This document shows, one piece after another, positions 15,778-21,031 of a DNA stretch of 64,000 nucleotides; position 1 is the first letter of the stretch, and each line of letters opens with the position of its first letter. The notes under the pieces were generated by a model, which was given only the letters and a program-made list of their open reading frames with translations, made no database searches and had not been told where the DNA came from. Origin of the DNA: a phage. Both the position numbers and the translations under genes were made by a program. The stretch is from sequence record PX915678.1; one strand, written 5' to 3'.

Positions 15778-16782
15778 TTAACTTACCAATTCAATCCAAG
15801 CCGGACGAAGTACATCTTGTACCATTTTAACTAATTCCTTCTTAATCAAAGAAGGATTATCCGCTTGAGTTAGAGTAATACCTTCACGAGAAGTTTCTTC
15901 CAAAATATCTTGAACAGTTAGTCCCATCACCTTTCCAAAATCTTTTGGACCAATTTCGCCAATTTTAGAAATAACGTTATTTACTCGGTTCAGTGTAACG
16001 TAACAAGCTAAAATTCCCGCCAATTTGTTATCAGCTTCTGACAGTTCAACTTTAGCTTTAATAGGCTTATCAGACTTTTTCTTTTCGCTAAATTTAGAGT
16101 TCTTGCATTTGATGGCTACACGATTGCCGTTATGCAGCCAAGAAGGATAACAAGGTTTCAATACATATCCTTCAGCGGTAAATACTTCGCCTTTTGCTTC
16201 GGCATTCCAAACGCATTTATTTGCATCAACTAATCCAGCGTGGTCTACCGTAAAATTATAATCTTGGACGACAGAATCTAAATCATTTGGCAATTTAATA
16301 AGTTCTTCAAATTTACCGCGACCTAAAAGTGGAGCCATTTTAAATTTAAATGTATTACAGAATGATTCCATCATATAATCATCGACATAAGTCACATCAC
16401 CACTTTCTGTAGTAACAATAATGTCAAATACATAAAAATCTTTATCGCCATAATCGACATTCTTCTGAATGCCAGGTCCAGCGAATTCGCCAAAAACTTG
16501 ATAAGATACAACTGCTGAAGTTTCCATAATATCTTGTACTGCTTTAATGGAATCAGAGTAATTCTTCAAAATAATTTCATACCCAAAGAAATCTTCAGCA
16601 GGAAGAATAGGACCAGTGCGTTTAGCACAAGTTACTTTATCACGCTCAATAATTAATGAGAAATTTGTGCCATGAATCTTTTCACGAGCTACCCATTCGC
16701 CACCAGTCAATCCTAAACTATAAAGTTTTTCAATGAATTTAGAATTGTAATGATTTTCAAGACTGCTATACTTTTTAAACAT
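15778..16782 (-). CDS. rnlB: RNA ligase 2
   Basis: 334-aa ORF, sequence recalled as T4 Rnl2 ([16 protein letters not shown]...[10 protein letters not shown] with the ligase lysine motif KxHGxN). Confidence 0.93.
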
Positions 16783-16791
16783 AATTAATCC

Positions 16792-17070
16792 TCAAAATGT
16801 AATTTCTAACCAATCACCATCACGCTGATCACTATTGACTTTAAAGCTAAATCCTTCTTTTCTCAGCCAATCACCAATTTCTTCAGTAATCAATTTATCG
16901 CGAGCAGTACAATAATAACTAAAATATGTTTTACCTTGTTCAGCTGCTTTATTAGCAAGTTCCGAAAAATCTTTAATAAAACACTCTAGCTTAAACTGTT
17001 TGCTTTTAAGTGCTTTTTCTCGTAATTGATTAGCAAAAGATTCATTTTCATAAAGATCATACTGTTCCAT
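16792..17070 (-). CDS. hypothetical protein (T4 24.2 position)
   Basis: 92-aa ORF tightly packed between rnlB and hoc on the same strand. Confidence 0.6.
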   Translation of the reverse strand: MEQYDLYENESFANQLREKALKSKQFKLECFIKDFSELANKAAEQGKTYFSYYCTARDKLITEEIGDWLRKEGFSFKVNSDQRDGDWLEITF

Positions 17071-17073
17071 TTT

Positions 17074-17271
17074 TCACCTTTTATTAATATGTCTTTTTCT
17101 ATAGACAACTTTTTCTCGAGTCTCAAATTTATTCTTAGCAGTCATAGCTCGAGCCCATAATACAGCCACTTCTTTCGCCTGTAAGTTCAATTCACGAGCA
17201 ATTTCAATGAATGACTTTCCAGACTCATGGAGTGTAAACACCACAACCTCAGTTCTCATAATCAATCTCAT
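17074..17271 (-). CDS. hypothetical protein (T4 24.3 position)
   Basis: 65-aa ORF with ATG start, co-oriented and tightly spaced. Confidence 0.55.
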   Translation of the reverse strand: MRLIMRTEVVVFTLHESGKSFIEIARELNLQAKEVAVLWARAMTAKNKFETREKVVYRKRHINKR

Positions 17272-17326
17272 GTTATCGAGTTGGTGCCATTATATACATC
17301 ATTTTATGAGTGTGTTTTGTGTGCTT

Positions 17327-17354
17327 TCAAAATGAAGAAAGGGGCCGAAGCCCC
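17327..17354 (-). terminator. terminator after hoc
   Basis: GGGGC-CGAA-GCCCC hairpin with a T-rich tract on the minus strand. Confidence 0.6.
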
Positions 17355-17360
17355 TTATGA

Positions 17361-18779
17361 TTATGGATAGGTATAGATGATACCAGTTTCTAAAGCAGTT
17401 TTATGAATGATGTATCCATTACGTGATTCTTGAACATCAACTTCTGGATAGTCTTTCATCATCTTCTGAAGAGTGTAGCGGTGCAGGTAGTATTTACTAT
17501 CTGGATCTTCAGTTTTCCAATCTTTACCTTCTTCGGTCATTTTTTGGATTTCATCCATAACCCACCAACCGCACCAGATATAAGCTGAAGTACGATGTGG
17601 AAGAGGATGAACATAAGGCAATTCACCTTCTGGTTCCGGAGCAACTTTATCAGTTACCTGAACTTGACCAGTCGCTTTAACTGTTTTACTATCATAGTCA
17701 GTTGCCGTAACGACAGCAGTAACTTCAATAGTTTGACTTCCAATAGATGAGGTGTCAACGGTGTATACGTTAGTTGACCCTTCCACAGGAGAAGAATCTT
17801 TCTTCCATGAATAAGTAATTTGTGCTGCTTCAGGTGCTCCAGTAACATTAGCCGTAAATGTAGCCGAAGCATCTTGCTGAACGTTAATAGAAGGAGGAGT
17901 CAGTGTAACCTGTGGATTCATTGTCTTCTTATTAACTGTCAATGATACTTCATTAGAAGTAACTTCCTTTTCATTGTAATTTTCTGCCGTTACTTGGGCT
18001 ACGCATTTAATTCTTTTTACTCCACTTGTAGTTGGAGTATAGCTAAATGTAGCGGAAGTTGCTTCACTAATTTGTGAATCATCTACATACCACTGATACG
18101 TAGCAGACGCTCCATCAGGTTGAGAAACCAAGGCAGCAGTAAATTGAACTGGGGTTCCAATTACTCCAGCTGAAGGACTATCAGGAGTTACTGCCAAGGT
18201 AGTTGTCTGCGTCTTTTTATTAACTGTTAATGATACTTCATTAGAAGTAACGCTTAGTGCATCATAATCTGCCGCAGTTACTTGAGCTACACACTTGATT
18301 TTTTTAACTCCGCTTGTGTCAGGAGTGTAATTGAATGTAGCGTCAGTTGCTTCGCCAACAGGAGAACCGTCAACGTACCATTGATACGTAGCAGATGCAC
18401 TTGGTGGCTGTGAAGCTAAGGCAGCGGTAAATTCAATTGGAGTTCCAATCACTCCAGCATCAGGGCTACCAGGAGTTACAGCTAAGGTAGTTGTTTGTGT
18501 CTTATTTTGAACTGTGATAGTTGTAGTAACTGTAGCTGTTTCAGGTTCAGCTTCTGGAACTGTATTTGTTGCAACCACCTTAATAGTCTTTTGACCGGCA
18601 GGTCCTTTTAATACATAATCAAAAGTTGCTTCAGCTCCATCCTGTGGAACATTATCTACACTCCAAGCATAGGTAATAGTTCCACCTTCAGTTTGACCAC
18701 TGGGTGCAGCAGTAAACTGCTTGGTTTCATCAATAACTCCTGTTGGTGTTTTAGGAGTTATATCAACTGTAAAAGCCAT
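17361..18779 (-). CDS. hoc: highly immunogenic outer capsid protein Hoc, 4 Ig-like domains
   Basis: 472-aa ORF with the conserved Hoc C-terminal capsid-binding region (PEPEGELPYVHPLPHR...GIIYTYP); contains a 96-aa internal tandem duplication. Confidence 0.92.
   Translation of the reverse strand: MAFTVDITPKTPTGVIDETKQFTAAPSGQTEGGTITYAWSVDNVPQDGAEATFDYVLKGPAGQKTIKVVATNTVPEAEPETATVTTTITVQNKTQTTTLAVTPGSPDAGVIGTPIEFTAALASQPPSASATYQWYVDGSPVGEATDATFNYTPDTSGVKKIKCVAQVTAADYDALSVTSNEVSLTVNKKTQTTTLAVTPDSPSAGVIGTPVQFTAALVSQPDGASATYQWYVDDSQISEATSATFSYTPTTSGVKRIKCVAQVTAENYNEKEVTSNEVSLTVNKKTMNPQVTLTPPSINVQQDASATFTANVTGAPEAAQITYSWKKDSSPVEGSTNVYTVDTSSIGSQTIEVTAVVTATDYDSKTVKATGQVQVTDKVAPEPEGELPYVHPLPHRTSAYIWCGWWVMDEIQKMTEEGKDWKTEDPDSKYYLHRYTLQKMMKDYPEVDVQESRNGYIIHKTALETGIIYTYP
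17928..18503. repeat. tandem direct repeat of about 288 bp (2 copies) inside hoc
   Basis: Encodes two consecutive 96-aa Ig-like units, KTQTTTLAVTP(G/D)SP(D/S)AGVIGTP...SNEVSLTVNK, with high identity. Confidence 0.85.
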
Positions 18780-18788
18780 AAGTTATCC

Positions 18789-19469
18789 TTATTTTAATGT
18801 TACGAAAGAAGAGTTGCGTGTTTCACGAATTAGAACTGATCCGTCACGGTTAATGTAGTAAATTAAGCTAAATAAAGTTTGGTGTGCCGACGCGTGTTCA
18901 AAACTAGTTGGGTGAGATTTCCAATCCGGAGTTTCAGCAATCCATTGGTAAATCCACCAAGGAACAGTGCAGAATCCTGGATTTTTTCCAATCAGCTGAA
19001 GATTCGGACTAAAGTTTTCCGGAAGAGTAAATACAGACGGTTTTTCAGATTCAATAATCTCAGCTACAGCCTGCTCGAATTTTTCTTCAACAAAAGGAGT
19101 ATCTTCAATCAAAACATCGGTATTTTCAGGAATTTTATCCGTTTCTACTACTTCAATTTTAATGTCAGATTTAACCGGAGAATCAATCAGAAGTGCTGCC
19201 TCTGGATTGACTTCTTCATCGTCATATTTTAATCCGTCTGCGGCATCAGCAGCATCAATTAAGTCTTTAATAGATAACCCATCAGTCTCTGGCATAGGTT
19301 CACTAGCGAGCTTCTGGAGGGCTTCTTCAATATCATTAACGATATTATCAAAAGATTTATTCTTTTTGACCTTTATACCAAACTGTTCAGCATATTCAGC
19401 TAATTTAGCTTTAGCTTCTTTATTATCATCAAGAGCCTTCAGCTCTGCAATATAATCTTTATCTATCAT
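18789..19469 (-). CDS. inh: inhibitor of prohead protease Inh
   Basis: 226-aa ORF between hoc and uvsW; T4 Inh size and position. Confidence 0.85.
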   Translation of the reverse strand: MIDKDYIAELKALDDNKEAKAKLAEYAEQFGIKVKKNKSFDNIVNDIEEALQKLASEPMPETDGLSIKDLIDAADAADGLKYDDEEVNPEAALLIDSPVKSDIKIEVVETDKIPENTDVLIEDTPFVEEKFEQAVAEIIESEKPSVFTLPENFSPNLQLIGKNPGFCTVPWWIYQWIAETPDWKSHPTSFEHASAHQTLFSLIYYINRDGSVLIRETRNSSFVTLK

Positions 19470-19483
19470 AATATTTCCTCAGT

Positions 19484-19491
19484 ATAAATAT
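19484..19491 (+). promoter_or_regulatory. late promoter (TATAAATA) for uvsW
   Basis: Exact TATAAATA about 29 nt before the uvsW ATG in the inh-uvsW divergent spacer. Confidence 0.65.
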
Positions 19492-19519
19492 AGATATATT
19501 TATTACATGGTATTTAGAC

Positions 19520-21031
19520 ATGACTGACATTAAAGTACATTTTTATGATTTTAGTCACGTGAGAATTGATTGTGAAGAAAGTACATTTCATGAACTCCGT
19601 GATTTCTTTAGCTTTGAAGCTGATGGGTATCGTTTTAATCCGAAGTACAAATATGGCCACTGGGATGGACGAATTCGTCTTTTAGATTATAATCGCCTTC
19701 TTCCATTCGGTTTAGTCGGGCAAATTAAAAAGTTCTGTGATAACTTTGGCTATAAAGCCTGGATTGACCCGCAAATTAACGAAAAAGAAGAATTATCAAG
19801 AAAAGATTTTGATGAATGGCTTTCTAAATTAGAAATCTATTCAGGAAATAAAAGAATTGAACCACACTGGTATCAAAAAGATGCAGTGTTCGAAGGATTA
19901 GTTAATCGTCGTAGAATTCTTAATCTTCCAACATCCGCTGGTAAATCTTTAATTCAAGCTTTGCTCGCTCGGTATTATTTGGAAAATTATGAAGGTAAAA
20001 TTCTTATCATTGTTCCAACAACTGCTCTGACAACTCAGATGGCTGATGACTTTGTTGACTATCGTTTATTCAGTCATGCAATGATAAAGAAAATCGGCGG
20101 TGGAGCATCAAAAGATGATAAATATAAAAATGATGCACCAGTCGTTGTTGGTACATGGCAAACTGTAGTAAAACAACCAAAAGAATGGTTCTCACAGTTT
20201 GGAATGATGATGAATGATGAATGCCATCTTGCTACAGGAAAAAGTATTTCATCTATCATATCAGGTTTAAATAACTGCATGTTCAAATTTGGTTTGTCTG
20301 GTTCATTACGTGATGGCAAAGCTAATATCATGCAGTATGTTGGAATGTTTGGCGAAATATTTAAGCCAGTAACGACCTCTAAATTAATGGAAGATGGACA
20401 AGTAACTGAGTTAAAAATTAATAGTATTTTTCTTCGCTATCCAGATGAGTTCACTACTAAATTAAAGGGAAAAACTTACCAAGAAGAAATAAAAATTATT
20501 ACTGGACTCAGTAAAAGAAATAAATGGATTGCTAAATTAGCTATTAAGCTTGCACAAAAAGATGAAAACGCTTTTGTCATGTTTAAACATGTATCACATG
20601 GTAAAGCTATTTTCGATTTAATTAAAAATGAATACGATAAAGTTTATTACGTATCAGGGGAAGTTGATACCGAAACCCGCAATATAATGAAAACCTTAGC
20701 TGAAAACGGTAAAGGAATAATTATAGTAGCTAGTTATGGTGTATTTTCTACTGGTATTTCAGTTAAAAATCTGCATCACATTGTTTTAGCACACGGTGTT
20801 AAATCTAAAATTATTGTATTGCAAACAATAGGTCGCGTATTACGTAAGCATGGTTCTAAAACAATCGCAACAGTCTGGGACCTCATAGATGATTGCGGTG
20901 TTAAGCCAAAATCTGCTAATACGAAAAAGAAATACGTTCATTTGAACTATCTTTTAAAACACGGCATTGATCGTATTCAGCGATATGCAGATGAAAAATT
21001 TAATTACGTAATGAAAACAGTTAATTTATAA
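19520..21031 (+). CDS. uvsW: UvsW RNA-DNA / DNA helicase
   Basis: 503-aa ORF with SF2 helicase motifs (Walker A PTSAGKS, DECH box MMNDECHLATG); late promoter upstream. Confidence 0.95.
   Translation: MTDIKVHFYDFSHVRIDCEESTFHELRDFFSFEADGYRFNPKYKYGHWDGRIRLLDYNRLLPFGLVGQIKKFCDNFGYKAWIDPQINEKEELSRKDFDEWLSKLEIYSGNKRIEPHWYQKDAVFEGLVNRRRILNLPTSAGKSLIQALLARYYLENYEGKILIIVPTTALTTQMADDFVDYRLFSHAMIKKIGGGASKDDKYKNDAPVVVGTWQTVVKQPKEWFSQFGMMMNDECHLATGKSISSIISGLNNCMFKFGLSGSLRDGKANIMQYVGMFGEIFKPVTTSKLMEDGQVTELKINSIFLRYPDEFTTKLKGKTYQEEIKIITGLSKRNKWIAKLAIKLAQKDENAFVMFKHVSHGKAIFDLIKNEYDKVYYVSGEVDTETRNIMKTLAENGKGIIIVASYGVFSTGISVKNLHHIVLAHGVKSKIIVLQTIGRVLRKHGSKTIATVWDLIDDCGVKPKSANTKKKYVHLNYLLKHGIDRIQRYADEKFNYVMKTVNL

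Follow-up and report, generated by a model that had tools for sequence, protein, structure and literature searches.

The window, by which we mean the whole 64,000-nucleotide stretch of phage DNA analysed here (record PX915678.1), carries a gene for a 472-residue protein that is hoc, an ordinary structural gene, in a close Tequatrovirus relative of Shigella phage pSs-1. In T4-like phages Hoc, the highly immunogenic outer capsid (head decoration) protein, occupies the middle of every gp23 hexamer of the mature capsid as a single copy and is dispensable for growth. The predicted protein aligns to the T4 Hoc chains (5vf3_Z and related entries) with an E-value of 8.7e-225, and its residues 189-472 match T4 Hoc residues 93-376 end to end (E 1.2e-165). 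Synteny points the same way: homologues of T4 24.3, 24.2 and rnlB lie downstream, inh and then uvsW lie upstream, and the order rnlB-24.2-24.3-hoc-inh-uvsW is common to the window, T4 and pSs-1. Directly past the hoc stop codon stands a likely intrinsic terminator, and the records of NBG2 and ATK48 have a terminator annotated at the place corresponding to this hairpin. Scans for sigma-70-type promoters around hoc, a type of scan that excludes T4 late promoters, gave matches at chance level only.

Five domains can be distinguished along the protein (Table 1), namely D1, two consecutive copies of D2 which we call units A and B, D3 and a C-terminal domain, D4. Matches to the Pfam families PKD, Ig_3, Ig_2 and I-set exceed the gathering scores, the PKD match in unit B covering residues 195-267 with 33.9 bits (cut-off 23.5). 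An HMM of the 96-residue unit finds four matches in the window Hoc, at 190 and 193 bits for the two units and about 30 bits for D1 and D3, versus three in T4 Hoc. An AlphaFold2 model, made with 30 five-domain homologues and having a mean pLDDT of 83.4, contains four all-beta domains across residues 1-378 (pLDDT 78-96 by blocks of ten residues, mostly above 85), with the C-terminal domain of low pLDDT in isolation. When the model is searched with Foldseek against the PDB, it retrieves four-Ig fragments of Dscam and ICAM-5 as well as the RB49 Hoc structure 3shs. The window Hoc thus has one Ig-like module more than T4 Hoc. The initial annotation had read an extra Ig-like domain from the length of the protein and the repeat, and this is borne out: Hoc has 472 residues here and 376 in T4 (1131 nt), the difference of exactly 96 residues equals one in-frame 288-nt unit, and the domain count of T4 Hoc does differ from that of the window.

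Table 1. Positions of hoc, its domains and the adjoining hairpin in the window
Feature	Position	Strand	Evidence
hoc CDS, 472 aa + stop, five-domain allele	17361..18779	(-)	ORF; alignment to T4 Hoc; synteny
Ig-like domain 1 (D1), aa 1-93	18501..18779	(-)	weak unit-HMM match, 32 bits; beta-strand domain, block pLDDT 86-94
Repeat unit A, A-type, first copy of Ig-like domain 2 (D2), aa 94-189	18213..18500	(-)	unit HMM, 190 bits
Repeat unit B, B-type, second D2 copy, aa 190-285	17925..18212	(-)	unit HMM, 193 bits; Pfam PKD
Ig-like domain 3 (D3), aa 286-378	17646..17924	(-)	Pfam Ig_3 and I-set at aa 289-374; block pLDDT 78-95
C-terminal capsid-binding domain (D4), aa 379-472	17364..17645	(-)	alignment with T4 Hoc reaches its residue 376
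GC-rich hairpin AAGGGGCTTCGGCCCCTT and T-run, likely intrinsic terminator	17339..17356	(-)	directly past hoc stop codon

The tandem 288-bp repeat that the initial annotation had placed at 17928-18503 is the same repeat, in another phase, as the single array that Tandem Repeats Finder reports at 17923-18515 (period 288, 2.1 copies, 77% matches, score 699), and a second repeat search returns two 288-nt copies, 17923-18210 and 18211-18498, with 76% identity. The best 288-nt self-identity within hoc is 76.4%, at offset 288; 20 codon-shuffled versions of the gene averaged 41% and did not exceed 44%, and the repeat is therefore real and far beyond chance. The two units are nevertheless far from the near identity in protein and DNA that had been claimed for them. 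In register they differ at 68 of 288 nucleotides (76% identity), with 41 of the 68 mismatches at third codon positions and a longest identical run of 23 nt, and their products match at 75 of 96 residues (78%). By the Nei-Gojobori method the comparison of A with B within the window gives a dS of 0.96, a dN of 0.15 and a dN/dS of 0.16, where a dS of about 1 is near saturation and the value is imprecise. The single unit of T4 matches the two window units at 80 and 81 of 96 residues, about as close as A is to B.

A search of viral contigs for related loci gave 21, few of them from Tequatrovirus, and we therefore drew representative hoc genes from an annotated phage collection; to place the units among their relatives, the hoc genes of 16 phages and viral contigs were cut into modules. 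T2 was excluded from the unit analysis, its record holding three annotated fragments and no intact hoc ORF. In a neighbour-joining tree the resulting 26 D2-type units split by their position in the array, not by genome. Clade A holds all first copies plus the single units of ATK48 and of vc5, an IMG/VR contig, while clade B holds second copies plus the single units of T4, RB55, KNP1 and two contigs, vc3 included; a third type, C, comprises unit 2 of pSs-1 and unit 3 of UGKSEcP2. Unit A of the window is 96% identical in nucleotides to copy 1 of CHD2BS1 and UGKSEcP2, and unit B is 94% identical to copy 2 of CHD2BS1, JoYop and vc2, versus 74-78% when A is compared with B across phages. Typing of units by the nearest protein reference is blurred by mosaicism at the level of loops, and diagnostic sites and clustering at the DNA level are clearer: at 25 such sites first copies are A and second copies are B in every array examined, with unit B of the window carrying a short A-type patch at diagnostic nucleotides 149/152 of the unit. 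At the protein level, among 122 Hocs, 39 of 40 multi-unit arrays open with an A-type unit.

Synonymous divergence gives the depth of this split. Across phages the dS between A and B has a median of 1.03 and a minimum of 0.71, compared with 0.33 within A, 0.23 within B, and 0.32, 0.35 and 0.20 among orthologues of D1, D3 and D4, respectively; in eight other phages with two or three units A versus B gives 0.55-1.30. In these phages no Hoc domain is as diverse as A and B are divergent, the A/B split being deeper by several-fold. Within each type dN/dS is 0.13-0.25, which indicates that both copies have been maintained by purifying selection.

The arrangement is also widespread. As a whole-gene megablast joins both query halves onto one unit and is unsuited to counting five-domain alleles, we used an 80-nt query spanning the border between A and B, at E<=1e-15 to exclude half-matches. 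This junction is found in 227 phage records, among them RB27, PP01, wV7, NBG2, phiD1 and pSs-1, out of 681 records that match hoc at all and 594 that cover most of it, and 21 of the 227 have two junctions and hence three units. Among the best 120 protein clusters of a search of 5.8 billion sequences, Hoc lengths of 376 residues occur 79 times, 472 residues 29 times and 567-570 residues nine times. A corresponding query for the junction without any D2 unit returned mostly partial matches of 55 nt, with a full match in three records representing two phages, F2 and JQD51, and alleles with zero, one, two and three D2-type units are thus all found. The five-domain Hoc is a common allele, found in roughly one in three of the phage records that match hoc.

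Compared along 20 kb, the window shows 98.2% identity with pSs-1 and 98.0% with KNP1, a phage of the same species which has a single B unit only. In 100-nt windows against pSs-1 the flanks of hoc are 94-100% identical, mostly 98-100%, versus 74-97% in the Ig-coding part. Aligned domain by domain with other phages, D1 is 80-95% and D3 84-97% identical in nucleotides, D4 is 93-99% identical among all Hocs compared with a median dN of 0.004, and D1, D2 and D3 of the window each have a different nearest relative. The best whole-gene identity of the window hoc is 94%, as is its best protein identity, and the exact protein was not found in a collection of 15 billion proteins; the window allele is a new mosaic combination. 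All domain borders share a similar linker, ACNGTTAAnAAnAAGAC, of the form ACNGTT-AAnAAnAAG-AC, which encodes TV(Q/N)(N/K)K followed across the border by T, and the best-conserved stretch of the D2 unit is its last ~35 nt (VTSNEVSLTVNKK). The point at which D1 and D3 are fused in F2 falls inside this shared linker. The middle unit of UGKSEcP2 and the single unit of T4 have a B-type 5' end and an A-type 3' end, and some single-unit Hocs have an A-type centre with a B-type tail; hybrid units of this kind are the pattern expected from recombination between units, with no particular history proven by them. In T4 the combination of a B-type 5' end and an A-type 3' end is not what a simple history of loss of A predicts. 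In vc5, D1 is 96% identical to that of T4, yet the D2 unit is of A type.

We propose that the window carries a common five-domain Tequatrovirus hoc allele, arranged as D1, A, B, D3 and the C-terminal domain, which contains an old duplication of D2, and we consider this reading likely to be correct. The 288-nt D2 module would have been duplicated in tandem and in frame, producing the A-B array before the sampled hoc alleles diversified, and purifying selection would since have kept both copies. The number of units, polymorphic from zero to three among T4-like coliphages, would then have changed most plausibly via recombination between co-infecting phages, with the conserved unit ends and linkers (..VTSNEVSLTVNKK followed by TQTTTLAVTP..) as the probable sites of exchange. 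The same recombination at linkers and unit ends would also explain why hoc is mosaic throughout its Ig-coding part.

The duplication is old, as follows from the A-B dS of about 1, the position-specific clades and the presence of the junction in 227 records. The initial annotation had instead described a recent duplication, and a recent event in the window phage itself, private to it and leaving near-identical, unstable copies, would account for the exact head-to-tail repetition, in frame, of a single unit the size of a domain. It is very improbable given that 68 of 288 nucleotides differ between the copies at a dS of 0.96, that each copy is 94-96% identical to the copy at the same position elsewhere and 74-78% identical to the copy at the other position, and that so many public phage records contain the same junction. 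Still less credible is a spurious expansion of the repeat during assembly, which we consider very unlikely, since the two copies have diverged and other, independent genomes have the same layout: at 24% divergence and with at most 23 identical nucleotides in a run, reads are placed uniquely, the hoc reading frame is intact, and the same 1419-bp gene is present in many phages sequenced independently, among them RB27, PP01, wV7, pSs-1 and NBG2. The suggestion that the repeat is a hotspot of copy-number change holds for the population, where alleles with zero to three units exist, and not for the window phage, in which high instability would not be expected because a maximum identical run of 23 nt should hardly favour slippage by homology. 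Given the general knowledge of how much homology T4 recombination needs, changes in copy number are more likely in mixed infections.

An origin in which the array was diverged from the start deserves more weight, although we regard it as unlikely. Here unequal or illegitimate recombination at linkers, in a cell co-infected by phages with single units of A and B type, would have joined the two in tandem, and the divergence of A from B would date the alleles and not the joining event. Pure A single-unit alleles (ATK48, vc5) and pure B single-unit alleles (KNP1, vc3) do exist, domains have been swapped as modules, as in the pairing of a T4-like D1 with an A-type D2 in vc5, and the ACNGTTAAnAAnAAGAC linker common to all borders would suit such an exchange. 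Against this, the A-B dS of about 1.0 is greater than that of any orthologous pair of D1 or D3, the maxima of which are 0.91 and 0.57, and the A-first order of 39 of 40 arrays implies one or very few founding events. As recombination has scrambled the flanks, duplication followed by divergence and the joining of diverged alleles are not cleanly separable. The founding event or events must themselves be old, seeing that dS within arrays reaches 0.2-0.5 for A-A and B-B comparisons, and whichever origin applies, the allele is not a recent one.

A broader interpretation, which we offer tentatively and as a doubtful possibility, is that the D2 region is an ancient cassette polymorphism under balancing selection, with at least three long-lived types (A, B and C) in fixed order and zero to three copies, moving between Tequatrovirus genomes that are otherwise 98-100% identical. 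This is compatible with the trough of identity at hoc, the deep position-specific clades and the parallel gain of a domain elsewhere, selection on copy number itself not being demonstrated. If true, the length of the fibre, its valency for glycans and its escape from anti-Hoc antibodies would be tuned by the number and type of units, and hoc would be a capsid-surface counterpart of the tail-fibre host-range cassettes.

Returning to the old duplication that we favour, the C-terminal domain would anchor Hoc at the centre of the gp23 hexamer as in T4, and the extra module would lengthen the projecting fibre by one Ig domain and add a second D2 surface. Reach, valency and epitope content should be altered in this way, and not capsid binding; indeed, attachment to the capsid should be unchanged because D4 is 95-99% identical to that of its relatives, with a dN of 0.004. 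The T4 Hoc fibre is put at 180 Å for four domains (PMC10385173), and by proportion to these 18 nm one more Ig module might extend the fibre by ~4-4.5 nm. In PNJ-9, the residues S183-L184-T185, which close D2, have been mapped as the site of MUC2/fucose binding (PMC11853027). The sequence NEVSLTVNKK ends both window units and places these residues at S183, L184 and T185 in A and at S279, L280 and T281 in B; an alignment of 30 five-domain Hocs shows no variation at S183, L184, S279, L280 and T281 and almost none at T185. The window Hoc may, as a candidate, present two SLT sites of the MUC2-binding type per fibre. Phages that share the SLT motif still differ in adhesion strength (PMC13390416), and other studies assign the binding determinants to D1 or D3 (PMC11853027). 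The change in adherence or antigenicity that the initial annotation had considered possible is plausible by analogy with this literature.

Phage therapy and work on mucus adherence take T4, with four domains, as their reference, although roughly one in three hoc-matching records has an extra D2 module and a second copy of the SLT motif; for vaccine and Hoc-display platforms, it is relevant that alleles differ in fibre length and in epitopes. As the repeat is old and diverged, the locus should not be treated as unstable or assembly-prone. Our literature search found no paper that explicitly describes the 472-residue Tequatrovirus Hoc, the A and B units or the series of zero to three copies. Five-domain Hoc sequences have long been public and annotated as Hoc, and variation in domain number is already known from the literature: T4 Hoc comprises three Ig-like domains and a C-terminal capsid-binding domain, 650 Hoc homologues have from 1 to 10 Ig-like domains (PMC10385173), and the Klebsiella phage PMBT63 has an additional Ig-like domain relative to T4, with the number of Hoc domains varying widely (PMC13435897).

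Compared with these known proteins, the T4 Hoc (NP_049793, 376 aa; 5vf3 chain Z) is the product of the same gene at the same locus, with D4 95% identical in nucleotides and with D1, D3 and one D2 homologous; it differs in having a single D2 unit, which is of B type but A-like at its 3' end, and so three Ig-like domains, whereas the window has A plus B and four. The architecture of the window is that of RB27, PP01, wV7, pSs-1, CHD2BS1, NBG2 and ~220 other Tequatrovirus records, whose Hocs of 472-474 residues have an A-type first unit and a B- or C-type second unit, at a whole-gene nucleotide identity to the window of 90-94%. Even the nearest genome, pSs-1, has a C-type second unit (84% nucleotide identity) where the window has B. 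The six-domain Hoc of UGKSEcP1/UGKSEcP2 and similar alleles (568-570 aa) has the same flanks and A and B units 96% and 90% identical in nucleotides to those of the window, and differs by one further D2-type unit, of C type. At the other end of the series the Hoc of F2 and JQD51 (280 aa) keeps the same borders but has no D2 unit, D1 being joined directly to D3, and the three-domain Hoc of PNJ-9 is without domain 3 according to its authors (PMC11853027). These three Hocs show that whole Ig modules have been lost in register.

Outside this group, the Hoc-like protein of PMBT63 and two IMG/VR homologues, L006 and L007 (472 and 471 aa), have four Ig-like domains and a capsid-binding domain as in the window, while being only 46-50% identical to it. 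The extra domain of L006 duplicates the D3 equivalent (57% amino acid identity with the adjacent domain) rather than D2, so that the gain in the PMBT63-like lineage was independent and is older. Finally, the N-terminal Ig-like domains of RB49 Hoc (3shs) form a linear string as in the window (Foldseek E 2.7e-10, probability 1.00), with 15% sequence identity and three Ig-like domains, and with a low global TM-score because the angles between domains differ.

The drop in identity to pSs-1, the nearest genome, is sharp and local, lying in the Ig-coding part of hoc. Across window positions 17646-18779 identity to pSs-1 is 74-97% in 100-nt windows, whereas in windows of the same size both flanks (15861-17360 and 18780-20279) hold 94-100%, and mostly 98-100%. 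When the Ig domains of hoc are compared one by one, the nearest relative differs from one domain to another. A further local mosaic patch is the divergence of PP01 in the rnlB region, where, inside rnlB at window positions ~16180-16580, its identity to the window is only 55-70% across ~400 nt, the remaining five compared phages holding 94-100%.

Genes neighbouring hoc in the window
Feature	Window position	Length
24.3 homologue	17074-17271	65 aa
inh	18789-19469	
uvsW	19520-21031	

On examination of the ORF order, the homing-endonuclease gene segE was found to be absent from the inh-uvsW interval of the window (19470-19519), while T4 and RB55 carry segE at exactly this position. SegE mediates non-reciprocal exchange. 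The segE-less locus adjoining hoc could be a recipient of homing-associated co-conversion, and such putative co-conversion might have contributed to the mosaicism of the hoc region. Downstream of hoc, close relatives differ in the length of the small ORFs. The 24.3 homologue of the window exceeds that of T4 (56 aa), and the 24.2 homologue has 92 aa, as against a CDS of only 102 nt annotated there in pSs-1 (L024 1015-1116).

Two database records call for comment. In the T2 record PV648363.1 (L032 1501-2617) hoc is annotated as three short CDS, no intact hoc ORF was found in this interval, and the gene looks like a pseudogene. Positions 18685-20103 of MG010123.1, a 32-kb record named 'Staphylococcus phage SAJK-IND', hold a five-domain hoc of T4 type that is 92.7% identical to the window hoc and matches the 80-nt query across the junction of the two 288-nt units at 100%; the organism and host label of this record looks wrong for its sequence.

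Finally, Hoc lengths of ~280, 375 and 472 aa occur in more distant T4-like lineages (IMG/VR contigs L006/L007 versus L008-L013 and L012/L016). The additional domain of the L006 Hoc is a neighbour copy of the D3-equivalent, to which it is 57% identical, and because it is this domain that was copied, Ig-domain gain and loss took place independently in the distant Hoc lineages. The length series is like in kind to that of the window's own relatives.
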